A DNA stretch of 64,000 nucleotides, taken from the IMG/VR virus record IMGVR_UViG_3300032330_000970. The stretch is one strand, 5' to 3'. Each line of letters starts with the position of its first letter. Position 1 is the first letter of the stretch. Shown here piece after piece: positions 803 through 58,432 of the stretch. Both the position numbers and the translations under genes were made by a program. Source of the stretch: an uncultured virus (IMG/VR IMGVR_UViG_3300032330_000970). Taxonomy: Duplodnaviria > Heunggongvirae > Uroviricota > Caudoviricetes. A model generated the notes under the pieces. That model made no database searches. It saw only the letters and a list, made by a program, of their open reading frames with translations, and was not told where the DNA came from.

Positions 803-1023
803 ATTGTTATTGTATTACAAAACCGACGGAACAAAAGTTTCTATCGATCGATGAAACGTGGGTGGACTTTATCACGGGTATCCGTAATGACTCCATCCGA
901 GGCTATACCTCTGAGGAGATGGAAGCCTTAAACAACGATGCAACGAAGCATGGAGGCGAGGTGCGACAGCATCCGTCTCCCGACGGAGTCACACTCCCCT
1001 TGTTTTATGACTGGGGTACGTGA
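799..1023 (+). CDS. Hypothetical protein
   Basis: AAGGAG RBS upstream; ATGA overlap. Confidence 0.7.
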   Translation: MNCYCITKPTEQKFLSIDETWVDFITGIRNDSIRGYTSEEMEALNNDATKHGGEVRQHPSPDGVTLPLFYDWGT

Positions 1024-1645
1024 AGTATTTGAGGGACTGAAGTCCCGAGAGGTCAGCCGTTACGTCAATTACTGGGACAAGATTAAGCCCAAGTCCCGTG
1101 AAGACGAATGGCGCTTCTGGATATTCTCGATTCTCGCAGCCAACTTCGGTTGGAAGCAGAACGTGAAAGCCTTTAATGCAATCAAGAATCGCGACTCGTG
1201 GAAGTCCGATCTCGGCAAGCTACAGTTCGAACTGTATCAAACCAAGACTGGACTGTGGCGGACCAAGGCCGTGAGCATCTGGAAGTTTGATCAGATGTTC
1301 GCTGCCAAGCCCCACATCTTCGAGCGTTATCCCAATGAGCCGTTGATGCAATACCGTGATCGGATTGCGGACAACGTGCCAGGATTGGCGATTGCTAAGT
1401 CAAGCTTCTATGTGGAGATGAAACATCACGAAGAGTCAAACGTTGTTTGCCTCGATCGTCGTGTGCTTAAGTCCATCCACAAGAGGGACAGAAACGTGAA
1501 CAGGACTGACTACCTCGCGCTTGAGAACGAGTGGCAGACCTGCTCAAAGGAATACGGTATCCCCGCGGCTACCGCCAGGTTCATCTGGTGGGACAAGTTA
1601 CAGGGGTATAAAAATAGTCGGTACTGGAGTGAGGTATTAGAATGA
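1007..1645 (+). CDS. HhH-GPD superfamily DNA glycosylase-like protein (Ogg2/N-glycosylase-lyase-like)
   Basis: RDRIADNVPGLAIAKSSF (helix-hairpin-helix), VVCLDRRVL (catalytic Asp position), YLALENEW. Confidence 0.7.
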   Translation: MTGVREVFEGLKSREVSRYVNYWDKIKPKSREDEWRFWIFSILAANFGWKQNVKAFNAIKNRDSWKSDLGKLQFELYQTKTGLWRTKAVSIWKFDQMFAAKPHIFERYPNEPLMQYRDRIADNVPGLAIAKSSFYVEMKHHEESNVVCLDRRVLKSIHKRDRNVNRTDYLALENEWQTCSKEYGIPAATARFIWWDKLQGYKNSRYWSEVLE

Positions 1646-5712: not shown

Positions 5713-6162
5713 TTACGGGAAGGTTAGCAGATATCGAAGTTGTTGTACATCCCCCAGGATGGTGTCGCGAATATTGAGAAGATCAGTATCCTTTGGATCG
5801 AGGCAAGTTGGCAACTCGTCTTGTAAAAAAGTGACAAACTTATCCACAAACTGTAATGGACTCCCGGAATAGTTATCAAGGTTGAGTACAAACTTACCGC
5901 TCGAAGCATAGATTCTTTGATACCGCCCCATATAAGACTCAATAAAATCATCCATGTTCTTTCCGAGAGATTCATAAATTTCTCCAAAGCTTTCGTGTTG
6001 AGCGAACGATTTGGTTTGCCAGTGAAAAATTTTAAATTGATTGTGAGCTGTCATTAAATTGGTTAGCAACATTTCTCCTTTGTCGGAACTTTTGGTCTCA
6101 AGGTCAGAACCTCTATTGCTTACCTGCATTTCCTTCAGATAATCTTGGAACTTGGCAGCCAT
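5713..6162 (-). CDS. Dps/ferritin-like protein (DUF5856-like)
   Basis: HNQFKIFHWQTKSFAQHESFGEIYESL..DDFIESYMG matches the Dps ferroxidase-type H..H..D..E pattern; DLLNIRD..YLL C-terminus. Confidence 0.8.
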   Translation of the reverse strand: MAAKFQDYLKEMQVSNRGSDLETKSSDKGEMLLTNLMTAHNQFKIFHWQTKSFAQHESFGEIYESLGKNMDDFIESYMGRYQRIYASSGKFVLNLDNYSGSPLQFVDKFVTFLQDELPTCLDPKDTDLLNIRDTILGDVQQLRYLLTFP

Positions 6163-7625: not shown

Positions 7626-10600
7626 CTACTTTCTTTCCGGAAACAAGATACCTTCTTGATTTTTTTCGAGCAAAACTTGATACAGAATAGCTTTCTTAAT
7701 TGGATTAACAATCATTGGAACGATTGTCATAAACTCTGACCGCCCCATTTTTTCTAATTGAGGAATCCTTGCTCCAAGTTGTTGTTGGACAATTGGTCCA
7801 GCCCGTTGCATCCATTCATATTTTTCATCGGTTGTTAACTCGCGTTTGAGTTGAAAAAAATCGTCATAGGAAATTGGTTCTTTATTAGCCTGCTTTTGTG
7901 CAATCAATTCTTGCATAGCAAAATCTTTAAGAGTACCTGCATCCCAGCTTAACGAAAATCGATTGCTGGCAAACATGGAAATTAACTTGTCATGAATATC
8001 TTGTGGGGTTCGTTTGCCCTCGTCGTACCCAACTGAGTCCACGCCAGAAGTGGTAAGTCGGCGGACAAACGGAATAGTATTGGCTAACTGCGTTCTTACG
8101 TTACCCCCAAGAAAATCCAAATCCGGATTACCAACTTTAGACGCAAACGGAACCGATAAAGCAAAGGTTGAAAGGAAATTATTTTGATAAGGTCTAGCGC
8201 TTGGGGCTCCGGTAAATCCGTTCCAGACTTGCTCAACGTCGCGCAACGTAGCGTACCCCGGAATAAGACCCCCAACCACATTACCAAAGGTCTTGGTCAA
8301 GTTGGTCATAATACCCTTAGCATCTTTTGTTCCAGGTCCAGGCGACGTTAACGACATGATCTGACGAATTCCGGACAAGGCGGCCATATCCATAATTCCA
8401 TACATTGCCAACGCTCCACCGGTAATTGCACCGTTGATGATAGCTTCTGACTTAGAACGTTTGTCGTAGCGAACTGATTCTGCGATTGCTCCTGCGAGAA
8501 TCAGAGGCCCGGAAATACCTACAGGGAAACCTTCAAAGCTGAAGAACTGAGGTGATCCATCTTTGAATCTTCCCACCTGGATGGAGCGAAGCTTTCCACC
8601 AGCAGCAAAGAAAGCTTCACGCTGGGCTGGATCATTAGGTCCTTTAAAGTGAATCATGAAGTAAGGATCATCTTCGCCACCCATAGCTTCCTTGAGTCCA
8701 TAGATCAAAGATGCTGTAAGGATGTATCCAAGCGTCATCTTTCCTACGAGAAGATCATGTTCGACCGTTCCAGGAACGGCTGGAGGACGATAGTATTTAG
8801 TATCCTTCAACATAGCTGCTGACCCACGATACAACCGAACAGTGGAAGTTACTGGCATAAAGTTAAGAACTTCGTTGGCCAAACTAGAACCTGTTTTCAA
8901 AAACTTAATGACCAACCGCAAAGGCCAAGCTTTAGAGGACATCGCTGTCAGACCGTCGGCAAGCAGACCAAACCAGCCTTCAAAATTATTTGTGTAAGTA
9001 GATTGAGCCGCAAAGGTCTTAGCTTTTTCAGCTAGGTTCTTTACCTCTTCCTCGTCTGGTCTTCCTTGTTCTAGAATCTCTTCGACTCTCAAAGATTCCT
9101 GATCGGGCGTGAGATTAAATTCTTTAGCTTCAGCTGCGGCTTTTGCTTCTGCTCTAACGCGAGCCTCGGGAGATTGGTTCAACAACCGAGCAACTTCTAG
9201 CTCAATTTCCTCCTGACTCTTCAGTCCTTTCTCAATAGCAATATTTGTAGCCTCGGCAATTTCGTACATTTTCTTTGAAGAAATTTTATTTATAGCGTCA
9301 CCAGCTGCCATGGAACGCCCAAAGAAAATGAAGGGAGCCAAGGCTCCATATTTACTGCTGATGAATTTGGAATCCAGCGGGATACGATATTCTTGTCCCA
9401 GGATATTGACTGGCAGTTCGGGTTTGACAGCTCCAGGTTTATTTGCACGATAAGCTTCAGCTTGAGATACAATCGCCTCCCATGTACTTACTCCTCTTTG
9501 ATCACTTGCAAGTACATCTTGAACTGTCGAATAATCACCTTCAAAAAAGATATTGGACGCCGCTTTTAAAGCTGGTTTCTCCCCAACAAAAATAGCAAAG
9601 TTCAAAGCTTTAGCTGCGTCGATATAGGCTTTAGATCTGGCCTTATCCCCAACCATTCCTTTTACAAACCCAACGCTTCCAAGGATTGCCGCGTTTAGTT
9701 CATTGCTTGCCGTAGCTGCCCAGGCATTGATTCCAATCGTTCCAATTCCCGACAACAAATTGGATGTTTGATAGTTCACTAGCAACTCTCCCCACACTTG
9801 AGGTGATACTAATTTTACATACTCGTACATCTTGGAAATTTCTTTATTACGAATCATTCCGACGGGATAAATAGGAAGATCTTCAATCATCTTATTTAGT
9901 TTGTTGCGCTCTGCTTCAGTCAGTTCAGGTAAACCAAGTTGCGACCGCATTTGCATAAACACTTCGCTATCGCTCAACACGCCAAGGTTTGTTGCCTCAA
10001 TAAGTTTGTCCAGAGCTGACCGCATTTTGCGAGTCTTACGTTCTTTCTTCTTCTCAAATTTTTTCTTTATATTTTCAAGTTCTTTCTTTCTCTCTTCGGC
10101 AATAAGTTCAGTCATGCCGTCGCGAAGGAAGTCAAGAACTTCTTTCTTTTGGGCTTCGTCAAGATTGGTATTTTGAGTAAGCAAAGCTCCCATTTTATTT
10201 TCAAAGTCCATGATATCACCACGGCTGGAACGAATTAGGCTACGAATATTTGTTTGCGGGCCCCCAATAGATTCCAACGAACGGACAGCTTGCTTCAAGC
10301 TGGACACGGCAAAGGGTCGGCCAAAAGCTTCCTCAATGAAAGGCTCAAGCCCAATCAACTCTTCTTCCTTATAGTTGTTGCGGAGCGAATCGCGGACATT
10401 GCTAATGAACTCCTGAACGTCAGGATACTTGGCAATACGATCCTTTAAAACTTCAGCTTCTGTCGGTTTGGGTTCCGGTTCAAACGCGGGCTGTAGTCCG
10501 CCCATTTCCTTGGTGCGTTGGGCAATCAATCTGCGGATGCGAGCTGCAAATTCTTCGAGCGCATCCTTTACCTTGGGTTCTTGTTGAAGACGGGCGGCTT

Positions 10601-13600
10601 GTTTTTGAAGCGCATCTGCGGATGCTTCGGCAAGCTCGGCTAATTTAGAAGGAGCATCTGACGGAATGATTACCGGAGCTTGTTGGGCTGCTCTTGCTTT
10701 TGCCCGAGCTGCTCTTTCAATTGCCTCGCCTCGTGTCGCTGGCGGAGCTACAACTTCTTCTTCTACGCCAGTCTCTCTAGCCCGTGCTGCCCGCAATGCT
10801 CTCGCTCCATACGATTCAAGGGCGTACGTGAGTGAAGCGTCAAAATAAAGTTCGACCTTTCGCCTAACGTTGTCCTGGTTTTTGGCGTCACGCAAGGCGG
10901 GAACTAACATGACTAACCGTTTGATCTCATCAGCGGAAGCAGCAGTCTCGCGGGGATTTTCGGAACGCTGAATGAGCTCAAGAATAATACGTCCCAATGC
11001 CCGAGTCTGTTTAGGATCAAGGCGAATATCATCTGCTTCGCCCCCACCAACTTCGGGTGCGGCCGTAAGATCGGCTCCGAGGAATTCTGCGCCATCTTTG
11101 TTAGCGTCTTCACTGGCAAGATAGTCAGCGAGCACAGCTTGAATCTGGGAAACAGTTCCACCTTTTTTATTTAGGTCGACCAACTTGCCGAGTTGATCCA
11201 AAGTCTTCTGCATCTTTTTGCTAGTAGTAATTTTTTCAGCCGCCCTCCGACCTGCGTCAACCAGACCGGATGCAATTTCATTTTCTTCAGGCTTGTAAGC
11301 TACAAGACGATCTTTGATTGCACTGTCAATTTGTTTACCAACATACATTTTCATGGCCTCTGGGTTGGCCGACAACTCACCAAGTGCATTCCATAAATCA
11401 ACGGTACGTCCCGGTTCGGTTCCGTACTTCTTGCTTAGCAAAAGCATTACTTCGGCCAACTGTTCGCGAGCAAATCTATCGGTCTTGGCTTTTTCACCTA
11501 GACCCTTGGCCAACTCAAATCCAATTGCACCTTGCAAGGGAAGCGAAGATTTAATATTCCCGCCCAAGAAAGCATTAAGTGTATTATCAAATCCGTAAGT
11601 GCCGATGTATTGACGCGCATCCTCAAACTGTTGTTCGCGAGGGACGGACATATAATACCAAGCATCCAGTAACTTATCTTTAGTCTTTCCCTCGGGGAGT
11701 GAATCCGCAAATTTAGTTACAATATTTTTTACGGCTTGGCTTTCGCGAAGCTCAGGAGCTGCGGTTAAACGACGAGCATAGTTGTCATATCCAGCTCTAC
11801 CAATAGCGGCAATTAAAGCGCCACGATTACTGTAAGTATAATTCCTTCCGTCAAAAATAATTTCGTTACGATCCTCAAACATTTTAGCAATTGTGTTGGC
11901 TACAGCTCCGGCCGCAGTCTTAGCTGTTGTGGGATAGGACGGATAAAATCCAATCTTTACGTTGTACTTCCCATACTCGGAAGGTTCGGTCAAATTCACT
12001 GGCTCAGTCGTGGCCACAAAAGCTGCGACCGGCAACGACTCACCCGACTCTTCCATACCTTCGGCAATCTCAAGGGCTTTGTTGGCAATACCTGGAAGGC
12101 TTGCCCGGCCACCATCCATGACGGACTTAGTCGCGGCCCTGAACAAATTGCGCTCTTGATTTGTGATCATCCCGCGACGAACTGCAACATCCAAACCATC
12201 GAGCCAATCGTTTACGTCAACCGTCTTGAATAGATCGTCAGCCGCGGTAACTCCAAATACGCCGTCAGTTCTGCCTTCAAGATGGTTCTCAATCATGCGA
12301 TAGATTCGAAGATCGTAGGAGTCAAATTTATTGGATGGTCGGGGAGACGTTGGGGAGCGACCAGGCTCGGGAGCCGGTACGGGTCCGGGTTTTGATTCGT
12401 CCATGAAATATTTAGAAGTCTTACGAAGATTAGAAATGGCATCTTCGATTCCTTGACGCAACACTAAGCGATCCGTGGCTTGAGGAGCCAAGCCCAACCC
12501 ACGTTTCACCACAGTGGCCATACTATCAAACCACACGCCAAGTCTGGCTAGAACGGACTTGGGTTCTTGACCAACAAGATCTTTCAGGCGTTGTGTCGCC
12601 CTGGCAATATCTTTTGGATCTACTGAAGTAACTTGTTCGGTAATACCACCTGTAAGATTTAGCTGCGATAATTGTCGGATACCTTCCATGGCAACCTGGT
12701 AAGAATCATTGGCCAAAGCTTTTATTTTTCCTTGAATAACGGGATCGGTAATGTCAGAACCAAGTTGAGAATTATAAAGTCTGGCAATACCTAATCGAGT
12801 TGCTTGGCTCATACCATCACCAATTGCCGTTACTTCTTCAACTGGATTTAATCCAAGTTCACGGAAATAACGGTAAGTTTCTATGTGGATTGTTTCCTCC
12901 AACATAACCTTTGTAAGATAGGATTTAAAATCTTTTTCGGGCACGCGTGATTTACTGACAGCCAATTTTTCGGGGTTAATAATAATTGTGTCGGATTCAT
13001 TATCGGTTCCAGCTTGAGCCGCTACGCTATGCTCCGCCGTGGGAGATACAAAAACATTGTAAGTACGAGATTGACCTTTGGCGTCTTTAAAGGTGACTGT
13101 ATTGTCTTTGTAGTTAGCCCCAAGAACGGAGGTTAGTTCCGTGTCTACAAACTTTTGTTGTTGGGTTGACGCTTCGTTTGTTTCCTTAATTGGAGCTACA
13201 ACTTCTTCAGCCCGGAGACCTTCGAATCCCGCACCAACGGTAGCGTCCAGCAAACGCAACTTGGCTCGCATACGGCCTATGGTATTTTGGTCAATCTCGG
13301 CCTGTGATTCGAGGAATACAATGTTGGGACGGCTAGCGCTGTCCACACGCCAGACACGATAGATAAGCTGAACCGCTTGAATTGCGCTAATCGGAGGAGA
13401 TAAAACAATCATCTCTCTGGACTCGTCACCAAACTTGTCATCCAGTTCAATTCCAGTTCCACCCATTTCCTTGGTTGCAATTAGAACATCGGCCTCACCT
13501 TCGTTAAAGGAAGCCATCGCTTGTTCCTTCGTCTGTTCAGAACCAGTATACATCCGGGCGATCTTGAGAGTCGGGTCAAGCTTAATGATTGCAGCTTCGA

Positions 13601-16600
13601 GTGACGCGGAAGTAGGATTAACTGTTTCGCCTTTGGAGTTTTCATCCGAAACAAATCCAACATAAAGGACAGGTTTCTTGCCACGCTTAATAGCATCTAC
13701 TGCTCGTTTAGCGGCTGCGTCAACTTTGTATTCTTCGAGCGCACGTTTTTGGGCTGCTGCCATTTTGCGTAAAGCCGAGATGTCCACGTTTTGAGTTCCG
13801 CCATACATCGCCTTGATGTTCTCGAGCTGTTGTTTAATCTGGTTATCGAGAGGAACATCCTGAAACTCTACTTCAACGCCATCCAGTTTGAGCGAACGAG
13901 AACGCATGATCCCGTTTTTTGCCATTCCATCAAGATAAGTTTCTAACCGATCTTGCATTTCGGTCTCGGTAACTCCTTGGGCCAACTGCCAATAGAATTT
14001 TTTTCCACCACGAAGAGCATATTTTTGAAAACCCAAACGGCTAAACAATGCGTCAGGGGATTCATTATCAAAGATGCCAAGACGTCCGAGAGAAAGAAGT
14101 TGGTCGGGAGTTTCAAACGGAGTGCCTGAAGCCATCAATGTGCGACCGGCTTTGTTGGCGATATCATCCATCAATATTGCCCACGACCGGGTCTTTCCGC
14201 CTTGAATAGCTTTAGATAAGTTACGGCCAGAATGCTGTTCGTCTAAAAGAACTACAGTCTTGTCATCAATTAACGGCAAAAGTTTTTCGAGGTATATGGA
14301 ATTGTATGTAGTGACTAACATGCGACCCGGAACAAATTCAATTGGCAATCCCTTTCCGTTCTCACCTTTGCCACCACGAACTGCTAGCGGAACGCCAAGA
14401 ATCGCCGCATCTTTCTGAATTGATCCACCAATTTCCCCATAGTCCCAGTTTGGCGTGACGGCATCGGGGGCCGTTATATAAACAACCTTATACTCTTTGT
14501 TGAGGTAATAAGCTCCAGTGCCAAGCAACACTCGCGTCTTTCCAGTTCCCGGTCCGTTCGCCAAGTAGAACGCTTTGTGCTTAGAGTTTTCGATTGTAGT
14601 GACAGCCGCGGCCACATCTTGAGTCTGTTCTTTGGACAAGTTGGAGAGAACTTGTTGCCCCGCGGGAGCAAGAATCTTTTCGTCGAAAGGTTTGCCTAAC
14701 TGGTTACGGGGCTCGACGAAGGACTTGGGGATTGGGGTGCCACGAGGGCGCTCAACTCCAGGTCTCCCGATTCCGGCTGGCGGACGCTCAACAGGTCGTT
14801 CCACTTCTTTCCGCTGCGCGGGAACGGCTTTTTCAGGAACTCGCTTTGCGGTGGTAGCGCGTTTTGCTTCGAGTTCGGCAAGCTTTGCGCTAGCTTCCTG
14901 ACGTCGATCAGCGGTCGTCTTGGCTTCAAGTTTTGGTGTGGTTGGTTGTTCGGGTTGTTCATAGGTTCCTTCCTTGTTCATGGTTAATCCGCTGTCGCGC
15001 AGGATTTGGTCGCTGACGCGAAGCAAGTTTGACCGGAAAGCGGCCGCAATTTTATTTTTGGCGTCTCCCTCCGGCATGCTTTCCGAAGCCAAATAGGGCT
15101 CGGCAAGTTTGTTTAATGTGGCAACATAGGCATCAGCTTGTTTCTGTGAAATAGTTCCGTCCTCGGTAGATTGCCGAAGATTGGTATCAATCGCTTCAGT
15201 AAGTTCCGTAATAGATTCCGGAGTTAATTTAGAAGTAGCTACGTTTTCAATAAAGGTATCAAATGATTTCAGTAGATCGCCTGATCGGGACGATTGAACT
15301 TCGCCAAGCAAAGTCTTGGCTGCGACTAACTCGGCATCATCAAAGAAATTATCCGCTTGCAACTGGCGGAACCGGTCAACATAAGGCTTGATCTGGTTGG
15401 CCGTAAGGCTACCTTCGCGTACAACGCCGGCTGGTTCCTCAACAGCTCGAACCGGTAGTGTCCCAGCTCGTTGATTATTTCGATAATTGTTTTCCAAGCC
15501 CTGAACAAACTTAGTTCTGACCGCGGGTTGAAGAGCGTTGATGTTGTCAATTGTTGTTCCGATCTTGGCCGCTTCCGAAGCCACGTTCTTTACATCTCCA
15601 ACAACGGCATCAAACGCCAACTTTTCGGCATCCGTGGCCAAAGAATCGCGAAAGGGTTGCTTAAAGTTTTCCGCAAGGATAGCTAATGCTTCCTGCCTTT
15701 GAGCTGCGGAAGGAACTTCGACTTGTCCTTGGATTTGAAAATCTGTTTCAGTCGCGTCGATCTGGTCGAGTGTCTCGTTAATTGCGCCGGCGACCGCTGG
15801 GTTAAGCCCTTGTTCTTCAGCCAGAGTTTCAGCGTCTACAGCTTGAGTGCGAAGGCCGGGAGTTTCCATGCTTACCGCCGCGCCAATTCCAACACCAGCC
15901 CGCATGCGGGGAACGGCTTGACGAATAAAATCGCGTAAGCGACTATTAAAAATTGTACTTAAGGAAAGATTCTTTTTACCTTGACGAAGCTCATATAAAA
16001 ATGAATTGATCGTCCCCATTGAGACTTCATCTGCAATGTTGTACGTTTGATAACCGGCCAAAGACTTGCTTTGAAGATAAGCATTCTTGCGTTTAATATA
16101 AGCCATCAAAGTCTCAGCGGGAGTCATTGTGTTGCGACCATTTTCATCAATCGCACCAAGACTCTGAAGTAGCTCAACCGTTGATGGATTCTTTAAATTA
16201 AATACGTCGCCAAGAGCATTTACATCGTTCTCTCTAGGATCAGGAGCCAGCTTCTGAAATTTCTGATACGATGCTTGTTCGGGATTGTTGATGGCAAGAA
16301 TAACGTCAGGACGAGCTTCTAATTCAGGAGCAATCGTTCCACCTTTGATAGCTGCATTTGTCTCGCGCTCAAACTGCCCCACCAAACTTGCAACACTTTG
16401 CTCACCTCGAGTGCCACGTTCCATTTCGCCCTGACCTTGCATGGCTTGCAACTTGGCAAGCTGTTCTTCGAGAGCCGGAGTTTCTTCCAAAGGAGACTGC
16501 CTGATCTTAGTCTGCAAAGCCGTGATCTGATCGGCAATCTTTTTAGCCCTGAACTCGGCGGGTCTTTCCTCGGCAACCAATTCTTGCTGTTGGGCAAGAC

Positions 16601-18713
16601 GAGTTTCCAGTGCAGTTTGAATTTGACTTGGTCCAAGATGTTTCGAAGCAATAGCCTCAATCTCTGGCATCGATCCAGCTGTATCCAATAGATCGCTGAT
16701 CTGGTCAACTTCGTTTTGGGTTATACCAGGTTTACTTTCAATTTCTTGCAAGATTGCGTCCTTCTCATCCTGCATGATTTCCGCTGGATCTTCTTTACCA
16801 AGCCAATTCCCCTCGTTATCCTTGACTCCTAAAACTTGATACCGTGACCCGTCTTCACTGAGTTTTCCGTAAACGCGACCCTGACTTTCAAGCCAATCAA
16901 TTTTGGCTTGATTGTTTGGGGTCGAAGAAAGATCAACCGAAGTTCCTCCTTTTTGAAATACATTTACTAATTCATTAAGGGCGCCAAGAGCTTCCTCGTC
17001 AGTTGCGGGAACTCCGGCCTCCATAGTTGGTGGCACTCCCATCTGAGTAGGTTGTACCTGAGCCTGGGCTTCGGCTACTTTACTTAAAAGCAAAGATTCA
17101 ATTGCTCCTTGTTTTGAGTTGTTAATTGCTTCGTCAGCTACAGCGGTAGTTTCAGGAGCAGTTGTTGGATCAAGAGAGGCGCGAACATTAACAGCATCAA
17201 AAAGAGCTTGAGCTTCGGGGCTATTTAAAGAATCGCGCAGTTCAACAATCTGTTGCATTTTCTGCTCTTCTGGAATCTTGGGATCATTCTTAATTCCAGT
17301 AACTGTTTGACGGAGCGTATCTGCAAATTTGTCATTGGCCATTTGATTAAGTCTAGCTCTCCGCCCAACAAATCCTTCGGCCAAAACCATGCCAAGACCA
17401 ATACCCCCGGAAGCAGCTAGGCTTTGTGGAATCTGAGCAATAGGATCTTGCCCGCGGGCAATCGCGTCAATTACATCGGATGAAGTTTCTCCAAGAGTTG
17501 TTCCAATTAATTTTGCAGTACCTTGAACAACTGGAGCAAACATGGGTAACTTGGTTTCCAGAGCCTTAGCCACCATATGATTGGCCAAAGCATGATCGGC
17601 AACATCTTCCAATTTATTGCCAGCTTCTTCGGATAAAGCTAAAACTCCAGCTTCGCTTACAATCGAGGCCAGCCGTTGCCCAACACTTAAGTTACGCGGA
17701 TCTTGATCGAGGGATTGAGAAGCGCCAACAACCGCGTAAGTTGCGCCCTTTGACAGGGTAGTTGGAACTTTAATTGTCTGACCTGCAATATCCGCAGCCT
17801 TGCCAAGCAGACCTGTGGCCCCCGCTCCAACTGCCATGAACTGACCCAAAGATCCGGTAGCCAATCCGGCCAAAGTGGACGGCATGTAATCTTTTTGAAT
17901 TACGTCGTTGATTCCGTTGGTAAGAGCGGCACGACGGGCCACTTGGTCAGGATTATTTTCATCGACAATAATATCTCCAATAGATACAAATGGAACAAAG
18001 GCATCCCCAGATTGAATTGCAAAGTTTCGAAGTCCCGCGGTTCCAAGTTTCTTTGTTTTGTCGCTCTGAAGATCTTTATAATATTCCTGTGCTCGGGCCA
18101 AATTCATTCCAACTTTTGGGGTATTCCATGCCCCAACCCCAAACTCCATTGCTGGAGCTTGGTCCTTGGGGGCAATAGACTTCCCCGCCGTTAACTCATC
18201 GGAGTAAAGAGTTCCAAGTTCAAGTGCTTTAGCAGCTTGGGTCGGATCTTTAATTGTTCCAATGTAATTGCGGGACGCCAAACTTTCCTGCATCGCTCTG
18301 GCATCTTCATTAGTAATTCCAAGCCCAGTTTGCAAATAAGATCCAATAACTTTACCCACACCTCCAACGGCAATTTTGGTAAGGCCCAACCAGTCATTGT
18401 TCTTTTCCGCGTCAAGGGTAGCTTGAGATGTGGATGTTATGTAATCATTGACATTCTGTTGAGCATCCTGCCATGACTGCGTATTAAAAGGTAGTTTTCC
18501 TTCTTTGAAGCGAGTAGCCGTACCAAGCAAAAGATCATTGGCTTTCGGGTTATCCCGAAGTTCCATAAGGTGGCCCGCTTGAGCCAAAGCCGACGAAGGC
18601 TGGCTTAATACGGAATCAAGTTCGTCTTGTTGTTGAACGGGAGTTTGTCCAAGAATATCCCCGACAATGCTATCGAGTGAACTGGCATCCATAGAAGAAA
18701 AGGGGTCTGCCAT
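7626..18713 (-). CDS. Giant (3695 aa) polyvalent internal virion/ejection protein: Strawberry-notch-like SF2 helicase, zincin-like domain, possible sigma-like module
   Basis: GPGTGKT, TTY, DEQH, SGT, GGTGIEL and QLIYRVWR helicase motifs (~aa 1365-1830); LEETIH zincin-like motif (~aa 1940); follows two ejection-type genes. Confidence 0.85.
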   Translation of the reverse strand: MADPFSSMDASSLDSIVGDILGQTPVQQQDELDSVLSQPSSALAQAGHLMELRDNPKANDLLLGTATRFKEGKLPFNTQSWQDAQQNVNDYITSTSQATLDAEKNNDWLGLTKIAVGGVGKVIGSYLQTGLGITNEDARAMQESLASRNYIGTIKDPTQAAKALELGTLYSDELTAGKSIAPKDQAPAMEFGVGAWNTPKVGMNLARAQEYYKDLQSDKTKKLGTAGLRNFAIQSGDAFVPFVSIGDIIVDENNPDQVARRAALTNGINDVIQKDYMPSTLAGLATGSLGQFMAVGAGATGLLGKAADIAGQTIKVPTTLSKGATYAVVGASQSLDQDPRNLSVGQRLASIVSEAGVLALSEEAGNKLEDVADHALANHMVAKALETKLPMFAPVVQGTAKLIGTTLGETSSDVIDAIARGQDPIAQIPQSLAASGGIGLGMVLAEGFVGRRARLNQMANDKFADTLRQTVTGIKNDPKIPEEQKMQQIVELRDSLNSPEAQALFDAVNVRASLDPTTAPETTAVADEAINNSKQGAIESLLLSKVAEAQAQVQPTQMGVPPTMEAGVPATDEEALGALNELVNVFQKGGTSVDLSSTPNNQAKIDWLESQGRVYGKLSEDGSRYQVLGVKDNEGNWLGKEDPAEIMQDEKDAILQEIESKPGITQNEVDQISDLLDTAGSMPEIEAIASKHLGPSQIQTALETRLAQQQELVAEERPAEFRAKKIADQITALQTKIRQSPLEETPALEEQLAKLQAMQGQGEMERGTRGEQSVASLVGQFERETNAAIKGGTIAPELEARPDVILAINNPEQASYQKFQKLAPDPRENDVNALGDVFNLKNPSTVELLQSLGAIDENGRNTMTPAETLMAYIKRKNAYLQSKSLAGYQTYNIADEVSMGTINSFLYELRQGKKNLSLSTIFNSRLRDFIRQAVPRMRAGVGIGAAVSMETPGLRTQAVDAETLAEEQGLNPAVAGAINETLDQIDATETDFQIQGQVEVPSAAQRQEALAILAENFKQPFRDSLATDAEKLAFDAVVGDVKNVASEAAKIGTTIDNINALQPAVRTKFVQGLENNYRNNQRAGTLPVRAVEEPAGVVREGSLTANQIKPYVDRFRQLQADNFFDDAELVAAKTLLGEVQSSRSGDLLKSFDTFIENVATSKLTPESITELTEAIDTNLRQSTEDGTISQKQADAYVATLNKLAEPYLASESMPEGDAKNKIAAAFRSNLLRVSDQILRDSGLTMNKEGTYEQPEQPTTPKLEAKTTADRRQEASAKLAELEAKRATTAKRVPEKAVPAQRKEVERPVERPPAGIGRPGVERPRGTPIPKSFVEPRNQLGKPFDEKILAPAGQQVLSNLSKEQTQDVAAAVTTIENSKHKAFYLANGPGTGKTRVLLGTGAYYLNKEYKVVYITAPDAVTPNWDYGEIGGSIQKDAAILGVPLAVRGGKGENGKGLPIEFVPGRMLVTTYNSIYLEKLLPLIDDKTVVLLDEQHSGRNLSKAIQGGKTRSWAILMDDIANKAGRTLMASGTPFETPDQLLSLGRLGIFDNESPDALFSRLGFQKYALRGGKKFYWQLAQGVTETEMQDRLETYLDGMAKNGIMRSRSLKLDGVEVEFQDVPLDNQIKQQLENIKAMYGGTQNVDISALRKMAAAQKRALEEYKVDAAAKRAVDAIKRGKKPVLYVGFVSDENSKGETVNPTSASLEAAIIKLDPTLKIARMYTGSEQTKEQAMASFNEGEADVLIATKEMGGTGIELDDKFGDESREMIVLSPPISAIQAVQLIYRVWRVDSASRPNIVFLESQAEIDQNTIGRMRAKLRLLDATVGAGFEGLRAEEVVAPIKETNEASTQQQKFVDTELTSVLGANYKDNTVTFKDAKGQSRTYNVFVSPTAEHSVAAQAGTDNESDTIIINPEKLAVSKSRVPEKDFKSYLTKVMLEETIHIETYRYFRELGLNPVEEVTAIGDGMSQATRLGIARLYNSQLGSDITDPVIQGKIKALANDSYQVAMEGIRQLSQLNLTGGITEQVTSVDPKDIARATQRLKDLVGQEPKSVLARLGVWFDSMATVVKRGLGLAPQATDRLVLRQGIEDAISNLRKTSKYFMDESKPGPVPAPEPGRSPTSPRPSNKFDSYDLRIYRMIENHLEGRTDGVFGVTAADDLFKTVDVNDWLDGLDVAVRRGMITNQERNLFRAATKSVMDGGRASLPGIANKALEIAEGMEESGESLPVAAFVATTEPVNLTEPSEYGKYNVKIGFYPSYPTTAKTAAGAVANTIAKMFEDRNEIIFDGRNYTYSNRGALIAAIGRAGYDNYARRLTAAPELRESQAVKNIVTKFADSLPEGKTKDKLLDAWYYMSVPREQQFEDARQYIGTYGFDNTLNAFLGGNIKSSLPLQGAIGFELAKGLGEKAKTDRFAREQLAEVMLLLSKKYGTEPGRTVDLWNALGELSANPEAMKMYVGKQIDSAIKDRLVAYKPEENEIASGLVDAGRRAAEKITTSKKMQKTLDQLGKLVDLNKKGGTVSQIQAVLADYLASEDANKDGAEFLGADLTAAPEVGGGEADDIRLDPKQTRALGRIILELIQRSENPRETAASADEIKRLVMLVPALRDAKNQDNVRRKVELYFDASLTYALESYGARALRAARARETGVEEEVVAPPATRGEAIERAARAKARAAQQAPVIIPSDAPSKLAELAEASADALQKQAARLQQEPKVKDALEEFAARIRRLIAQRTKEMGGLQPAFEPEPKPTEAEVLKDRIAKYPDVQEFISNVRDSLRNNYKEEELIGLEPFIEEAFGRPFAVSSLKQAVRSLESIGGPQTNIRSLIRSSRGDIMDFENKMGALLTQNTNLDEAQKKEVLDFLRDGMTELIAEERKKELENIKKKFEKKKERKTRKMRSALDKLIEATNLGVLSDSEVFMQMRSQLGLPELTEAERNKLNKMIEDLPIYPVGMIRNKEISKMYEYVKLVSPQVWGELLVNYQTSNLLSGIGTIGINAWAATASNELNAAILGSVGFVKGMVGDKARSKAYIDAAKALNFAIFVGEKPALKAASNIFFEGDYSTVQDVLASDQRGVSTWEAIVSQAEAYRANKPGAVKPELPVNILGQEYRIPLDSKFISSKYGALAPFIFFGRSMAAGDAINKISSKKMYEIAEATNIAIEKGLKSQEEIELEVARLLNQSPEARVRAEAKAAAEAKEFNLTPDQESLRVEEILEQGRPDEEEVKNLAEKAKTFAAQSTYTNNFEGWFGLLADGLTAMSSKAWPLRLVIKFLKTGSSLANEVLNFMPVTSTVRLYRGSAAMLKDTKYYRPPAVPGTVEHDLLVGKMTLGYILTASLIYGLKEAMGGEDDPYFMIHFKGPNDPAQREAFFAAGGKLRSIQVGRFKDGSPQFFSFEGFPVGISGPLILAGAIAESVRYDKRSKSEAIINGAITGGALAMYGIMDMAALSGIRQIMSLTSPGPGTKDAKGIMTNLTKTFGNVVGGLIPGYATLRDVEQVWNGFTGAPSARPYQNNFLSTFALSVPFASKVGNPDLDFLGGNVRTQLANTIPFVRRLTTSGVDSVGYDEGKRTPQDIHDKLISMFASNRFSLSWDAGTLKDFAMQELIAQKQANKEPISYDDFFQLKRELTTDEKYEWMQRAGPIVQQQLGARIPQLEKMGRSEFMTIVPMIVNPIKKAILYQVLLEKNQEGILFPERK

Positions 18714-32834: not shown

Positions 32835-33373
32835 AACCAGCTCCTTGCAAGCATTGTACACAATGGCCTTCGCTTGCGATAGACCCCATCCCCCTCCCTA
32901 CTCCCATTGTCGTTTGTATTGCCTTCGATTGTAACTGCCATTTTACCCTCAATCCGCTCTATAAGCCCCGTGTGGGCCACTCTATGTAAGCTTTGGAAAT
33001 ATATGCCAAAAGAATCGGCGGGGTTTGGCACGGTACCTTTACCGCGATCCCACGTAGGTTTAATGACAAAGGCTGGACTCCAAGCGGAACGTGGAAAAGG
33101 GTTGTTTTGTTTACTAAAAGCTTTATCTCCAACATAGACAACCCAAGCCGCGCACCATGGGGCCCGACTGCCTTCTAATCCAACTGTGGCTAAGATCTCG
33201 TCCACCACGGCCCCGGAGTTTCCAGGTTCTTCTCGAAGGCCAATCGTGTCTCTAGCGACTTCAATAAGTCGCGATACTCTTTCTCCTCGCGACGGTACGA
33301 TTCCTTCAGCAACTCCCTTTCCGGTACCCAACAAAGATAGAGATGCCAAAGCCAGCGCATGGATTATCCGCAT
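32831..33373 (-). CDS. CHAP-domain endolysin with N-terminal signal/SAR-like segment
   Basis: PWCAAWV (Cys), HTGLI (His), TIEGNT..REGDGVY; hydrophobic N-terminus. Confidence 0.85.
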   Translation of the reverse strand: MRIIHALALASLSLLGTGKGVAEGIVPSRGERVSRLIEVARDTIGLREEPGNSGAVVDEILATVGLEGSRAPWCAAWVVYVGDKAFSKQNNPFPRSAWSPAFVIKPTWDRGKGTVPNPADSFGIYFQSLHRVAHTGLIERIEGKMAVTIEGNTNDNGSREGDGVYRKRRPLCTMLARSWL

Positions 33374-33705
33374 AACAAGGCGAAAGCTAAGACAAGTCCT
33401 ATGAACACAACGACCAATATAGTCGACCGTGTCTGCCCGTTTAATTCTTTCCAGTCATCCTCCAAAGCATTATTATCCATGTATTGATCTAAAAACTTAA
33501 ACTCAATATTGATTATTAGCCAAGCTAATGTCACCGCAAAAAGTAGTTTAACCCCAGCAAGTAGTACTACATGAAGGGCTCCAAGGTCTACAACTCCAGC
33601 TCCGGGATCAATAGCGTGAAGGATTGGGCCTAAAGCAAGAAATAAAAGCAAACCACACGACAAAGCGCCCAAGCCCTGGACGTTATCCTTTAACCACTTT
33701 TTCAC
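33364..33705 (-). CDS. Putative holin (3 TM)
   Basis: Three hydrophobic segments; directly upstream of the endolysin; GTG start. Confidence 0.65.
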   Translation of the reverse strand: MKKWLKDNVQGLGALSCGLLLFLALGPILHAIDPGAGVVDLGALHVVLLAGVKLLFAVTLAWLIINIEFKFLDQYMDNNALEDDWKELNGQTRSTILVVVFIGLVLAFALLCG

Positions 33706-53697: not shown

Positions 53698-54687
53698 ATG
53701 TTTAGCATCAGCTTTGGCGGCCTTACTGGGTTTGGCCGTATGTGTATTTTTAACCGCCATCTACATGCAAGTTCGTTGTTGGCTGCGGCGCTGGTTTTAA
53801 TCCCGCTTTCGGCAAAAGGAACAGACTTTAGTCACCCATGCGAACTGAGCATGAAGTCTGTAGTTCGTGTGTTCCAGAATGAAAAGGACACAAACAAGAT
53901 CACGTTTGGAACCGGCACAATCATTGGAAGGGATGGAACTATCCTGACATGCGCCCACGTAGTTGATGGGACTGGCAAGATTGATGTAATGTTTGGTGAC
54001 GGTCTTACCAACGCAGTTTATAGTGCCAAGGTAATTCAATCCGACGCGAAGTTGGATTTGGCTCTACTGAAACTTGAGGGATGTCCGGAACATTTGCGGC
54101 CGATGCCACTATCCAAAATGCCAACGCCTCCGCGGGGAACTCCAGTAGTGGCAATTGGTTCACCGCTTAAGATATTCCGAACGGCAACCCAAGGCATCGT
54201 TAGTTATGCAGGTCCGGATGAAGGCCAAGATATCCTGGTGTTTGACGCCAGGGTCATGCCAGGATGCTCAGGAGGGCCCGTAATAGACGAATCTGGCGAC
54301 CTTATAGGCATTGTGACGGGTGATCTAGGCAGAGACACTCATAGGCTTGCTAGGGCCGTTTACTTGACAGAAATCGAAAAGTTCTTGGCAAACGTATCGT
54401 CCAACGCTCCCCAACGGGGGTTTCTTGGGATTGACACAACTCCGGTAGGTACGGGGATTGCGGGTCCTGGAATGTCAGAAGGTCTGAAGGTTACCAATAT
54501 GTCTGCCATAGATGAGCTTCTTCCGGGAGACGTAATCATGACTTTCAATGATTACCAAGCAACTAACCATAAAGACCTAGTTAGGATGGTTCGTAAATGT
54601 ACACCAGGAGACCGAGTTGAGGTAGGCATTTTACGTAATGGTGAGTTCAAACTTATACACATGATTATTAAGGAGTTGCGGAAATGA
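53698..54687 (+). CDS. HtrA/DegP-family serine protease with PDZ domain
   Basis: LTCAHVV, DLALLK, PGCSGGP catalytic triad; GFLGI and LLPGDVI PDZ motifs; start uncertain. Confidence 0.88.
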   Translation: MFSISFGGLTGFGRMCIFNRHLHASSLLAAALVLIPLSAKGTDFSHPCELSMKSVVRVFQNEKDTNKITFGTGTIIGRDGTILTCAHVVDGTGKIDVMFGDGLTNAVYSAKVIQSDAKLDLALLKLEGCPEHLRPMPLSKMPTPPRGTPVVAIGSPLKIFRTATQGIVSYAGPDEGQDILVFDARVMPGCSGGPVIDESGDLIGIVTGDLGRDTHRLARAVYLTEIEKFLANVSSNAPQRGFLGIDTTPVGTGIAGPGMSEGLKVTNMSAIDELLPGDVIMTFNDYQATNHKDLVRMVRKCTPGDRVEVGILRNGEFKLIHMIIKELRK

Positions 54688-54938: not shown

Positions 54939-55198
54939 GGATTCGAAGGGTGTAGGGTGGGGGGTGGAGGGGTGGTTTTGAACTCGTTGTTCCTACAGCT
55001 TTGCGTGTGTGCCGTGTGTGTCAAAACTTCCGGAACGAGTTGGGGTACCCCCACCCACCCCCACCACTCCCACCCTCTCTTTCTTTATATTTATATATTT
55101 AAATAATAAACATATACTTACACAAGGACCCAAGGTTAAAAATTTGGGTGGGGGTACCACTTTTTGACCCCCCACCCTAGGCAACACCCCCACCCTAA
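54890..55198. repeat. GGGTGGGGG/CCCCCACCC repeat cluster around an AT-rich core; candidate replication origin
   Basis: Several direct and inverted copies, two GGGGTACC sites, AT-rich block at ~55080-55120. Confidence 0.55.
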
Positions 55199-55524: not shown

Positions 55525-56261
55525 AACAACCTAAAATTGTAACCATCGGTACACCCGCTTATGGTGGTCAGGTCACCAGCGGGTTTGCCACCTCCCTTGC
55601 TGCGTCAGTCAGTTTGTTTCAAAGCTACAACATGGAGTTGCACTGCATTCTTTTAACCGGACATTCCGTGATCCAAATGGCTCGCAACCGTGTGTTGCGC
55701 GAGTTCTTGAAAACAGACAGCGAAATGCTTGTGTGGATTGATTCCGATATTTCGTGGAATCCCACAGATCTTTTAAAGCTTTGCTTGCATGAAGAAGAAG
55801 TTGTCGGAGCAACCTACAGAAAGAAAACTGCCAACACGACCGAGTTTACCGTTCAGTTAAAGCGTGGAAATCTTGACCCCGATGACCGCGGCTTGCTTGA
55901 AGTTGACCGCATTGGAACAGGATTCCTTCGCGTAACGCGGGAAGCTCTTGACGATTTGATTAAGGATACCAATCACCTTGACCTCCACAATAAAAATACC
56001 CAGACCCATACGATTGGTGGTTCTGGCAAGTATCAGGATTCCCAAACAGAATATATCCACAATGTGTTTGAGGTCGGCATCTACAAAGGCGAGTTCCTTT
56101 CCGAAGACTTTATCTTTTGTGAGAAGCTAAAAGAAAAAGGTTACAAGATCATGATGGATACCAAAATTGATCTTGGGCATGAAGGGTCTTATGTTTACCG
56201 CGGAAGCATTTCGCACTTTCTTAAGTACATCAAAGAAGAAGAGGCCAAAGAAAAGAAATGA
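55521..56261 (+). CDS. GT-A fold glycosyltransferase-like protein
   Basis: IGTPAY, ARN, WIDSD (DxD), GTGF, SEDFIFC, H.G. Confidence 0.8.
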   Translation: MKQPKIVTIGTPAYGGQVTSGFATSLAASVSLFQSYNMELHCILLTGHSVIQMARNRVLREFLKTDSEMLVWIDSDISWNPTDLLKLCLHEEEVVGATYRKKTANTTEFTVQLKRGNLDPDDRGLLEVDRIGTGFLRVTREALDDLIKDTNHLDLHNKNTQTHTIGGSGKYQDSQTEYIHNVFEVGIYKGEFLSEDFIFCEKLKEKGYKIMMDTKIDLGHEGSYVYRGSISHFLKYIKEEEAKEKK

Positions 56262-56319
56262 TATACGGATTCTTGCTGGGAATTCTTGTCTATTGGATCT
56301 TTGACAAATCCCGTAAAAG

Positions 56320-56754
56320 GTGCGGCTGGTGCAATCGACCTCAGTAAAAACTAAGTGGCTTGATCTCGCTATGCGGCTGGCTGACGCCGCGGCTAAAACC
56401 AGCGAAGATCAATTTGTTAAAGTTGGTTCTGCAATTCTTCGACACGACGGATCGGTTTGCGGAGTTGGCTATAACGGTTATCCACCAGGGTTTGATTTGA
56501 CTAAACAAGAATCTTTAGACCGCGATTACCGGCGGGACTTTATGGTCCATGCCGAGATCAACGCCTTGGCTTATTGCAATCCTGGCGAACCTTTTATTAT
56601 GGCCGTGACTTACCCTCCGTGTAAAGCTTGCTTGTTGGAAGCCGCCCGGTATGGAGTTAAGAATTTGATTTACCGTGAAAACAAAGACCGTGACATTTTT
56701 CCGTCAGATTATTTGGCCGCCCGTTTGGGCCTCACCCTGATTATCGAGAAGTAA
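56320..56754 (+). CDS. dCMP deaminase
   Basis: SED..KVG, GYNG.P.G, HAE.NA, PCKAC; start uncertain. Confidence 0.9.
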   Translation: MRLVQSTSVKTKWLDLAMRLADAAAKTSEDQFVKVGSAILRHDGSVCGVGYNGYPPGFDLTKQESLDRDYRRDFMVHAEINALAYCNPGEPFIMAVTYPPCKACLLEAARYGVKNLIYRENKDRDIFPSDYLAARLGLTLIIEK

Positions 56755-57084
56755 TTAGGCAGACCACCAACCAACGTTGGGAGGAAATGCGCTTTTCTTC
56801 TTTGTGATATCCGCACCCTGACCGGGAACTTGAGGCTGCCCCGGCTTTTGATTTTGAGGGATTGCGGGAGCTTGCACTGGTTGCGGTGGAACTGTATCAG
56901 TAATTTGCTTTTGACCCGCTGCTACCAGTTTGTCGTATTCACTTTTGATAATAGCGTCAATGCTTGCAACACCGGTCAACAAGTCTTCAATCCGCGGAAG
57001 AGTGCTCGCCGCACCCGTATTCTTTGGGAGGATGTTCTGTGGGGAATAATCGTCAGCCTGATGAATGCCTGAAAGCAATTCCAT
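56755..57084 (-). CDS. P/Q-rich hypothetical protein
   Basis: Has its own leaderless promoter. Confidence 0.65.
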   Translation of the reverse strand: MELLSGIHQADDYSPQNILPKNTGAASTLPRIEDLLTGVASIDAIIKSEYDKLVAAGQKQITDTVPPQPVQAPAIPQNQKPGQPQVPGQGADITKKKSAFPPNVGWWSA

Positions 57085-57090
57085 TAACCA

Positions 57091-57118
57091 AGTGTATTTT
57101 GCCAGCCATCTAAGTCAA
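57091..57118 (-). promoter_or_regulatory. Sigma70-type promoter, leaderless
   Basis: TTGACT-N16-TACACT-N6-ATG(57084). Confidence 0.7.
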
Positions 57119-57271
57119 CCCACAAAAATAAATTAAATTTTTAAAATACATATACCCTATTATGGGCTGGCTGGAAGGGGGGTGGGGGAGGGGGTGCGTA
57201 TAGGGGTTGTCCCGCAAACCCACAGCCCGATAGGGCAGGGGGGAGGGGGAAACCAAAAAGGAAACATAACT

Positions 57272-57697
57272 ATGAACAAAGCAATCATTAACTCTAACGA
57301 AGTAACCATCAAACCCGCACGCACGGCCAAGAGTGGCAAGGCACTGAAGGCAGTGTTTGGACGTTGGGATGGCGAGGCACTTGTGACGGATGGCGGAAGG
57401 CTGGCATCTCGCAAGGATTTCGGAACCATCCAAGACATCAAGGGTGCTCAACTCACAACCGAATACGCCAAGGCTCAAGCATCCTTCAACACCCTCGGCG
57501 AAGCCACGCTCGCAAAGGAGCAGAGCGAGGTAGCATCGGGACGGCGAGAGATGAAACGCATCTTCACCAACCCCAAGAATGGGCGAACCATTCTCGAGAC
57601 TGCACCCGCTGACAAGGCGGTGAAGGTTGTCGAAGCCCTCAAGGGATTGCCCCAAGAGGTGCAGGACAAGGTACTGGCCGCCCTCAAGATGGCCTAA
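57272..57697 (+). CDS. Basic K/A-rich stand-alone early protein
   Basis: AAAGGA RBS before ATG 57272; followed by a terminator. Confidence 0.75.
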   Translation: MNKAIINSNEVTIKPARTAKSGKALKAVFGRWDGEALVTDGGRLASRKDFGTIQDIKGAQLTTEYAKAQASFNTLGEATLAKEQSEVASGRREMKRIFTNPKNGRTILETAPADKAVKVVEALKGLPQEVQDKVLAALKMA

Positions 57698-57703
57698 CCC
57701 ACT

Positions 57704-57741
57704 AGGGGAGGGGGGAGAGAAATCTCCCCCCTTCTCTTTTT
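57704..57741 (+). terminator. Intrinsic terminator
   Basis: GGGGGGAGA-GAAA-TCTCCCCCC stem, extended by G-U pairs, then TTTTT. Confidence 0.8.
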
Positions 57742-57819
57742 ATATCAAAGAATCCAAGAATCTTAGAATCTATGATACCAAGCTTAATGTATAAGTCGCA
57801 CAATACATCTTGTATCAAA

Positions 57820-58275
57820 TTACACGTCGATGGTCGGCTTCGGTGCATCGTCGGTTCGAAGAATCGCCAAGTTAACCACAGTCTTTCCCATTTGTCCACC
57901 GTTTTGTGTTGCGAGTCCCAAAGCTGGTCGAGCTATTCTGTCCACCTTCTCGAGAACTTCGATATGATCTTTCAATTCCTTCCTGCTTCCAGGCATCTCG
58001 GCTTCGAGGACGTCCAAGCTGTGGTCGACTTGATTAGCAATCCTCGACAGATATCTGGCCTGTTTATCGGTAGCAGTCTGCACAATCTCCCGATCCACCT
58101 TCTGCTTCAGTTGCACAATGTTTGCATCCTTCCGTGCAACCCACTTGCATCGCCTAGCTTTACTAGCCAAAGTGTTAAGGCTCAGACAATACTGCGATGC
58201 AATGAAGCTACGACTCTTGCCTCCAACGAAGTCACGTTCAACCGCTTTCCAATCTATAGCCAAGGCTTTAGGCAT
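57820..58275 (-). CDS. terS: Terminase small subunit
   Basis: DWKAVERDFVGG.S...IASQY.LS.NTL..ARR.KW N-terminal HTH, central coiled coil, C-terminal VVNL strand. Confidence 0.7.
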   Translation of the reverse strand: MPKALAIDWKAVERDFVGGKSRSFIASQYCLSLNTLASKARRCKWVARKDANIVQLKQKVDREIVQTATDKQARYLSRIANQVDHSLDVLEAEMPGSRKELKDHIEVLEKVDRIARPALGLATQNGGQMGKTVVNLAILRTDDAPKPTIDV

Positions 58276-58281
58276 AAGCCT

Positions 58282-58310
58282 AGCTTATCGGGCATTGTGC
58301 ATAAGGTCAA
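58282..58310 (-). promoter_or_regulatory. Sigma70-type promoter, leaderless (terS)
   Basis: TTGACC-N17-TAAGCT-N6-ATG(58275). Confidence 0.7.
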
Positions 58311-58432
58311 TGCATCTTTGAATCAAGGAATCAACGATGCCGTGCATCCTGTGCACAATCAACCTTCATCCCCCCTGCCTTTCGGGTCGTTCCCGAAGGG
58401 GGAGGGGGAACCGCAGCGTATAAGGAGTACAT

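Follow-up and report, generated by a model that had tools for sequence, protein, structure and literature searches.

A very diverged sigma-70-like module within a giant, probably ejected protein of an uncultured phage

Known systems

The closest described counterparts of the module considered here are the extracytoplasmic function (ECF, group 4) sigma-70 factors, such as RpoE, SigR, SigH, SigL and AlgU. The module lies in a giant protein encoded by an uncultured virus of the Caudoviricetes (IMG/VR record IMGVR_UViG_3300032330_000970), and the window analysed comprises 64,000 of the 64,406 bases of this linear record, which is 91% complete. Like the ECF factors, the module is predicted to consist of a sigma-2 part, a short linker and a sigma-4 part, in the same order and of the same size; ECF factors are the best fold matches of both its halves, and the ECF family TIGR02937 is matched by two of its homologues. 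Unlike them, it is embedded in a chain of 3695 residues and stays under every family cut-off, with an extra helix-hairpin at the front, two extra linker helices and a drifted recognition helix. It is very probably of sigma ancestry, a very diverged sigma-70.

A second comparison can be made with the polyvalent proteins (Iyer et al. 2017, PMC5512222). These are likewise giant multi-domain proteins encoded among virion genes, with a Strawberry-notch-like superfamily 2 (SF2) ATPase and a zincin-like motif. The main text of that paper names Strawberry-notch-like ATPases and ADP-ribosyltransferases (ARTs), and its transcription cargo consists of an N4-like RNA polymerase and ARTs. The word "sigma" is absent from the main text; the supplementary domain tables may bear on novelty.

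Virion RNA polymerases (N4 vRNAP, DEV) are described as ejected proteins of ~3400-3700 residues that start early transcription (PMC11445570, PMC12633501). The giant protein here differs from them in having no polymerase catalytic motif. The gp66 protein of crAss-like phages is another virion RNA polymerase.

Other phages reportedly make free-standing sigma factors, for instance T4 gp55, SPO1 gp28 and gp34, and phiEco32 gp36; T4 gp55 is said to be a very diverged sigma that reads the -10 element only. These proteins are likewise encoded by the phage and redirect the host core enzyme, as is predicted for the module. In contrast to the module, each of them is a small protein by itself, which the phage produces once infection is under way and uses for its middle or late genes. 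Phage sigma factors are described as separate genes in group 2 jumbo phages as well (PMC7824862).

Packaged proteins that act on host transcription are also known. T4 Alt is packaged, injected and turns the host RNA polymerase to phage genes (PMC5512222). Whereas Alt modifies the host enzyme chemically, the module would supply the specificity subunit itself. An earlier, sequence-only reading of this DNA was aware of no packaged sigma-helicase fusion, and neither such a fusion nor any sigma domain within a virion protein was found described in the literature searched, as judged from titles and the openings of abstracts. The module is presented here as a likely new cargo for ejection or polyvalent proteins.

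The module and its family

The sequence-only reading had placed a sigma-70-like module at window positions 15490-16110, which correspond to residues ~869-1075 of the giant protein. The strings that it quoted, IADEVSMGTINSFL, LSLSTIFNSRLRDFIRQ, AAVSMETP and LATDAEKLAFDAVVGDVKNVASEAAKIGTTIDNINALQPAVRTKFVQGL, are present there in that order, with YELRQGKKN between the first two. The segment is real, but it starts earlier than was drawn: the module proper spans residues ~843-1078, beginning near window position 16187.

The module is conserved in homologous giant proteins, as one of the proposed checks had asked. A search with residues 820-1110 matched 45 of 3602 candidates, at 42-96% identity and with lengths of 3406-4629 residues. 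A profile of 16 rows, run against 1.84 billion representatives, gave 12 matches (E<=0.001) and new relatives down to E 1e-5; ten are proteins of 2241-4629 residues and two are apparent fragments of 307 residues. Fused forms of 441-2000 residues were searched as well, with one match, an apparent fragment. The 53 stored giant proteins (2241-4629 residues) are the query and proteins found or kept through the module, so that its presence in them is by construction; the Walker A motif of the neighbouring helicase lies 546-619 residues downstream of the module start in 47 of them.

The constraint on different parts of the protein can be compared in the 7 most distant rows of a 19-protein alignment. 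Identity there is 0.51 over residues 780-850, 0.56 over 850-945, 0.33 over 945-1000, 0.38 over 1000-1085 and 0.28 over 1085-1250, with 0.59 in the helicase and 0.28-0.36 in the flanks. The N-terminal half is therefore strongly constrained, and the C-terminal half less so. Judged by these alignments, conservation of the sigma-2 half in this clade roughly equals that of the helicase, and the segment is a genuine conserved module rather than a product of chance.

Evidence for sigma ancestry

For the C-terminal half, the proposed sigma likeness is supported by sequence comparison. TIGR02937 (sigma70-ECF) matches 2 of 23 rows, both distant homologues, at E 3.7e-5 and 2.2e-4, and is the top NCBIfam family in that scan. 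The signal sits in region 4, since residues 97-163 of one homologue (L011) give E 8.9e-4 alone; L011 is homologous end to end with the window segment (29% identity, E 3e-26). When the C-terminal half was aligned by hhalign with a 38-member sigma factor profile (33 from genomes and 5 from E. coli), it scored 25.8 in register (probability 65%, E 6e-5). Among the controls, none of 20 column shuffles exceeded 13.2 and reversal gave 12.5, and the C-terminal window came first of 65 along the protein. An earlier run with the 5 E. coli factors placed region 4 first of 66 windows by a marginal score (21.8 versus 19.8), with region 2 absent from the top 8.

The predicted fold of this half is the sigma-4 helix-turn-helix of the sigma-70 family. 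In structure comparisons with VIA, it aligns with region 4 of sigmaE (2h27_D) over 69 of 69 residues (Z 5.3, root-mean-square deviation (rmsd) 3.1), and with region 4 of SigR over 65 of 65 (Z 4.9, rmsd 2.5).

For the N-terminal half, the evidence that suggests region 2 is the ranking of predicted folds, together with motifs compared by eye. Modelled alone by AlphaFold (23 rows), this domain has a predicted local distance difference score (pLDDT) of 90.1 and a predicted template modelling score (pTM) of 0.80. The sigma-2 domains of RpoE (5uxx_C) and SigR (1h3l_B) rank first among 48,161 chains in VIA (Z 6.3, rmsd 3.5-3.8, 73-74 residues aligned), and 8 of the 50 rows in that list are sigma by title, with 2 more probable. 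By eye, the D-x4-G-x-I of region 2.2 is common to the module and sigma, and 23 residues on, compared with 24, LSTIFNSRLRDFI can be set without a gap against FSTYATWWIRQAI of RpoD and FTTYAVQRIRGAM of FliA, an alignment that hhalign did not recover. DEAH-helicase rows in the Foldseek list of this domain, and a Pfam HA2_N match (15 residues, E 0.014-0.023, 9 of 23 rows), were rejected as short local likenesses.

The helix and short hairpin in front of this domain may be the counterpart of sigma region 1.2. Across 23 rows G19 is invariant and L15, A20 and E23 are nearly so; the model has a helix at positions 9-18, and the 1.2-2 fragment of RpoS aligns over model positions 10-103 (Z 4.5, rmsd 4.6).

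Between the two halves, the module reads VSMETP where RpoD has ISMETP at the same place. The SLD.P linker that had been proposed finds a parallel in 5 distant homologues, which read SLD, SID or TLD, but the protein itself has AAVSMETP; the stretch is variable in the family and its pLDDT is <50. A further case comes from a profile (A4) run over 131 prokaryote genomes, which gave 8 matches at E<=0.05. The best of the 8, the one examined, is L127 (E 1.1e-4 per genome), a fragment of a very distant relative that reads SLD...GD..ED in place of AVSMETP, the clearest finger-like stretch seen, and continues into an SF2 helicase. Its only matches are Pfam Sigma70_r3 (46-77, E 0.043), RpoD_Cterm (0.03) and SigH (0.059), and its contig ends inside the sigma-2 part. 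The two extra helices after the linker are variable or absent in distant homologues.

The whole module (residues 835-1085, 19 rows) was modelled as two helical domains with a disordered linker at 108-120 (pLDDT 82.4, pTM 0.50). The AlphaFold and Foldseek check that had been proposed returned sigma chains in 45 of the 48 PDB rows listed, over 220-317 columns, judged from titles and chain lengths, but with a best E of 0.12. Sigma chains fill the Foldseek list only with both halves as query. In BFVD, 13 of 50 rows are named sigma. Of 50 VIA rows, 15 are sigma, two or more of which are out of register; AlgU, SigB, SigH and SigL give collinear whole-length rows.

By itself, each score from these models is within the range of common helical folds. 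Stretches resembling sigma-2, linker or finger, and sigma-4 nevertheless follow one another along the chain in the sigma order, although no alignment is significant alone, and the assignment carries weight because each of three successive parts picks out the sigma region that corresponds to it.

Several results weigh against it. No single test on the giant protein's own sequence reaches significance. Its segment, whose identity to known sigma factors had been noted as low, has no sigma match in Pfam, PHROGs, NCBIfam or PDB sequences, and profile searches of PDB sequences gave none either. No curated family cut-off is passed by the module or its homologues, the 23 rows contain no Pfam sigma match, and the best TIGR02937 score is 20.9 bits against a cut-off of 42.9; the N-terminal half alone gave no match. 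Sigma-2 was missed by hhalign, in which the N-terminal half scored 16.8, out of register, with shuffles up to 21.3. Among the folds, no Foldseek match in the PDB reached E<=0.001, and the sigma rows repeat a small number of sigma factors; the best E in BFVD is 0.17. The unrelated NttA tops the VIA whole-module list (Z 6.6), in which all Z are <8. For the N-terminal domain, SelA and other unrelated bundles tie with sigma-2 within 1 Z (Z 6.1), and the best Foldseek template modelling score is 0.39 (sigma-A domain 2, E 1.3). The profile search of 1.84 billion proteins, through which alone stand-alone forms were sought, reached no stand-alone sigma factor. The putative recognition helix here has 2 basic residues and 1 acidic in 17; members of the near clade have 1-4 of either kind, and L011 and P0051 have 5 basic and 0 acidic. 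Finally, ESM features liken the segment to a Sigma70_r2 set (0.93, 7 of 30 matches; that cluster at rank 9), and the L011 segment to Sigma70_r4_2, ECF and GerE clusters (0.95-0.96, among named clusters only), but these likenesses are leads only, because the shared-feature counts are low (135-150 of 256, compared with 170 typical of true family members).

The sequence-only reading had said that it would fall if there were no sigma profile or structural hit, or if the segment modelled as a generic helical bundle not conserved in homologues. Neither was found: the module is conserved, and the profile check, which gave nothing for the segment itself, gave sub-threshold sigma matches in homologues. 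The module is classed as sigma-derived, and not as a family member, because it falls below curated cut-offs and its defining activity is putative.

Proposed mechanism

The reading preferred here is that the module, packed and ejected with the giant protein, is a working injected sigma factor that starts early transcription at two candidate promoters. Its probability is put at about one in two.

The process would start with the virion. To judge from its gene position and size, the giant protein is likely packed into the particle and ejected with the DNA, like the N4- and T7-type ejection proteins. On the minus strand the genes run, in head-to-tail arrangement, from a terminase (PHROG 2, E 2e-10) through tail-fibre-type genes (with NHL, He_PIG, DUF5122 and collagen) and four unnamed genes (141, 410, 531 and 528 residues) to the giant gene, the last large gene of the virion block. 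Short-tailed phages keep their ejection proteins at this position. Downstream come a Dps-like gene and genes for a glucosaminidase and a PHROG "virion structural protein"; the plus strand carries the replication and early genes. A giant multi-domain gene inside a virion block is also what characterizes polyvalent and ejection proteins.

Next, as in sigma biology generally, sigma-2 would dock on the beta' clamp helices and open a -10-type element, for which GCGTATA is a candidate. A predicted complex of the N-terminal domain with E. coli beta' 245-335 scored 0.01 against a mark of 0.32, which is no evidence either way. Region 4 in the near clade would keep its fold, perhaps for the beta flap. 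Its residues suggest that ordinary -35 reading has likely decayed there, while the core-binding half was kept, and specificity would therefore rest on sigma-2, a G-rich box and the tether. The neighbouring helicase might aid the opening or the pulling-in of DNA, which could offset missing melting tryptophans.

The phage would borrow the catalytic core of the host polymerase. Neither D[FY]DGD (two-barrel) nor T7-type motif B, the catalytic motifs of such polymerases, was found when all six reading frames of the record (64,406 bases) were scanned, and family scans of the giant protein gave no polymerase match. That a whole uncultured phage family injects a complete sigma-helicase fusion, and seizes the host core before any phage protein is made, is a tentative proposal, somewhat short of even odds.

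Candidate early promoters

The absence of TTGAC promoters at the early genes, which an injected sigma had been proposed to explain, holds weakly: 6 sigma-70-type sites are seen in 56000-64000 compared with 7.3 expected by chance, and none lies before the first early gene. Two non-coding sites share, in register, GGGGG-W-GGGGG-A-N6-GCGTATA-R-GG. Both are kept in relatives, site 1 even in a phage with a 43% identical module. Site 2 is not just a ribosome site, because relatives change the following AGGAG but keep GCGTATA.

When 2.9 million viral contigs were scanned for the motif, 22 matches were found in 16 contigs, and the pattern occurred in 0 of 200 Markov simulations. Of the 10 contigs with the module, 7 hold twelve of the matches, the remaining 3 being fragments of 38-43 kb; two further matches are in a fragment whose primase is 95% identical. 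Counting against a promoter role, the remaining 8 matches are in contigs without demonstrated relatedness, and GCGTATA alone is not clearly enriched (7 versus 3.5; 6 of 100 shuffles). Moreover, the motif counts show conservation and not function, because the pattern was drawn from the same relatives. The two sites may instead serve host sigma, or act as a genome end or origin.

In the contigs of 4 RNA runs with small word shares, parts of 57533-60200 are covered by relatives, whereas 56800-57483 is covered by none; such RNA-library contig coverage shows neither a start site nor transcription.

Alternative explanations

The best of the alternatives, though an unlikely one, is a sigma-derived decoy or tether that does not initiate. 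It would grip the core polymerase and either displace the host sigma or couple the enzyme to the ejection channel, so that in the tether version transcription and helicase would pull the genome in. The half that would bind core is indeed the conserved one (0.56 versus 0.38), most of the near clade has a recognition helix without a basic face, and the module remains fused to the helicase at the spacing seen in 47 proteins. By eye, the tryptophan pair of RpoD region 2.3 is Ser-Arg in the module, which also suits a decoy; yet FliA, which is a working sigma factor, likewise has no tryptophans there. A decoy would need less than what is kept, namely finger and region 4 in order across very distant homologues, and phage-specific conserved early sites exist.

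It is improbable that the module is no sigma at all, but a generic four-helix bundle with an ordinary helix-turn-helix DNA-binding domain, for example as a DNA anchor of an ejection protein. Such an origin would account for the lack of a significant match of the N-terminal half by any sequence method, for fold scores in the range of common helical bundles, and for the weak match of the C-terminal half to the LuxR-type regulator RhlR (E 1.4) alongside the GerE clusters in the ESM atlas. It would leave unexplained why three separate parts point to the matching sigma regions in the right order, and why both halves have to be given before sigma chains fill the Foldseek list.

Least probable is a working sigma factor without injection, which would serve middle or late genes inside the infected cell, or be cut out of the protein before it is packaged. 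In favour, the phage sigma factors known so far are described as made during infection (PMC7824862), the phage encodes a trypsin-PDZ protease and packaging is read from gene context, but a location at the far end of the virion block would suit a late-gene switch poorly, and the 12 profile matches include no stand-alone form.

The giant protein and its genome

The SF2 helicase to which the module was said to be tethered is real. Its Pfam matches (AAA_34, ResIII, Helicase_C and Helicase_C_4) have E 7e-5 to 0.016, all under curated cut-offs, and in homologues an SF2 ATPase is above cut-off. Walker A lies ~550 residues after the module; among the 53 stored giant proteins GxGK[TS] is present in 50, and DE.[HQ] is kept. 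Further along, LEETIHIE is a putative metallopeptidase-like site, with glutamate in place of the first histidine in most homologues. Residues 2497-2655 of the homologue P0052 match ART-PolyVal (E 7e-7, 30.5 bits versus a cut-off of 31.2), and cargo therefore varies within the family. The cargo typical of polyvalent proteins, SF2 ATPase, metallopeptidase and ART, is represented across the family. Coordinates of the features are given in Table 1.

Table 1. Position of the module, its surroundings in the giant protein, and the candidate promoters in the window.
Feature	Residues	Window position	Strand	Basis or remark
Giant 3695-residue protein (one open reading frame)		7626..18713	-	Likely ejection or polyvalent protein; virion location from gene context
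Helix and short hairpin (LLQSLGAIDE..R..MTPAE), in the place of sigma region 1.2	843-864	16122..16187	-	Conservation, model
Sigma-2-like helical bundle, regions 2.1-2.4	863-941	15891..16127	-	Predicted fold ranking
Sigma-3.2 finger-like linker AAVSMETP	945-952	15858..15881	-	RpoD likeness, homologues
Two extra helices	961-995	15729..15833	-	H127-134, H138-161; identity 0.33
Sigma-4-like helix-turn-helix domain	1008-1078	15480..15692	-	Fold, hhalign, TIGR02937 in homologues
SF2 helicase, Strawberry-notch-like, Walker A GPGTGKT and DEQH	1359-1824	13242..14639	-	Pfam, motifs
Zincin-like motif LEETIHIE	1938-1945	12879..12902	-	EExxH in 16/19 homologues, HExxH in 3/19
Candidate early promoter 1		57179..57205	+	GGGGWGGGG-N7-10-GCGTATARGG, ~70 bases before first early gene
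Candidate early promoter 2		58399..58425	+	Same motif, in register with site 1

No stand-alone Sigma70_r2 gene was found elsewhere in the genome. One candidate at 33333-33410 (E 0.013) was rejected; it has an internal stop and lies on the strand opposite the virion genes. Host-type genes include the trypsin-PDZ protease at 53698-54687 (+), the Dps-like gene at 5713-6162 (-) and an 8-oxoguanine glycosylase at 938-1645 (+).

The module, terminase and primase have no cultured relative among 50,697 phage records, and no prophage carrying the module was found in GTDB genomes. One related primase contig of 1.5 kb (L089) occurs in a metagenome-assembled genome, too weak a link for naming a host. The distant fragment L127 (G014:C290:1360-3091) is in the same metagenome-assembled genome, a possible lead to the host group.

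Several further features were observed in and near the early region. An A+T-rich block, AAAATAAAT.AATTTTTAAA.TACATATAC, at 57124-57160 (+) immediately precedes candidate promoter 1 and is conserved in all 6 copies aligned; it is possibly an UP-like element, an origin or a genome end. A strong intrinsic terminator follows the first early gene at 57704-57745 (+), and is kept in relatives where the gene itself differs. On the opposite strand, a 151-residue open reading frame at 57820-58275 (-) lies between the two early sites, with a start region conserved in relatives. In two RNA-library contig sets coverage is deepest over 57707-58407, which is not proof of transcription.

An imperfect hairpin around TCGTT at 58368-58411 (+) overlaps candidate promoter 2. 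In relatives its arms read TATCGGG/CCCGTAG instead of TTTCGGG/CCCGAAG, with a matching change in each arm. Two 34-base copies (82% alike) of AGTCTGGCCGAT.GGCTGGAAA stand at 59579-59612 and 62070-62103 (+), each preceded by a hairpin and followed by an early gene, and are candidates for further promoters or processing sites. A non-coding stretch at 55047-55196 (+) holds C-rich repeats (CCCCCACCC) that are the G-rich box in reverse.

Implications

These observations bear on how phages without a polymerase of their own and without strong host-type promoters begin transcription in the first seconds of infection. If the tentative proposal of an injected sigma-helicase fusion is right, the fusion would read a phage-specific promoter of G-rich box and GCGTATA, and would couple early transcription to DNA entry. 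This would be a third route to start an infection, beside host-sigma promoters and virion RNA polymerases.

With a sigma delivered by the virion, the known cargo of ejection proteins would come to include a domain for transcription specificity. The proposed strategy involves a module of 250 residues and two candidate promoters of 27 bases. The minimum that a sigma needs would also be shown by one that works inside a chain of 400 kDa and whose region 4 has drifted.

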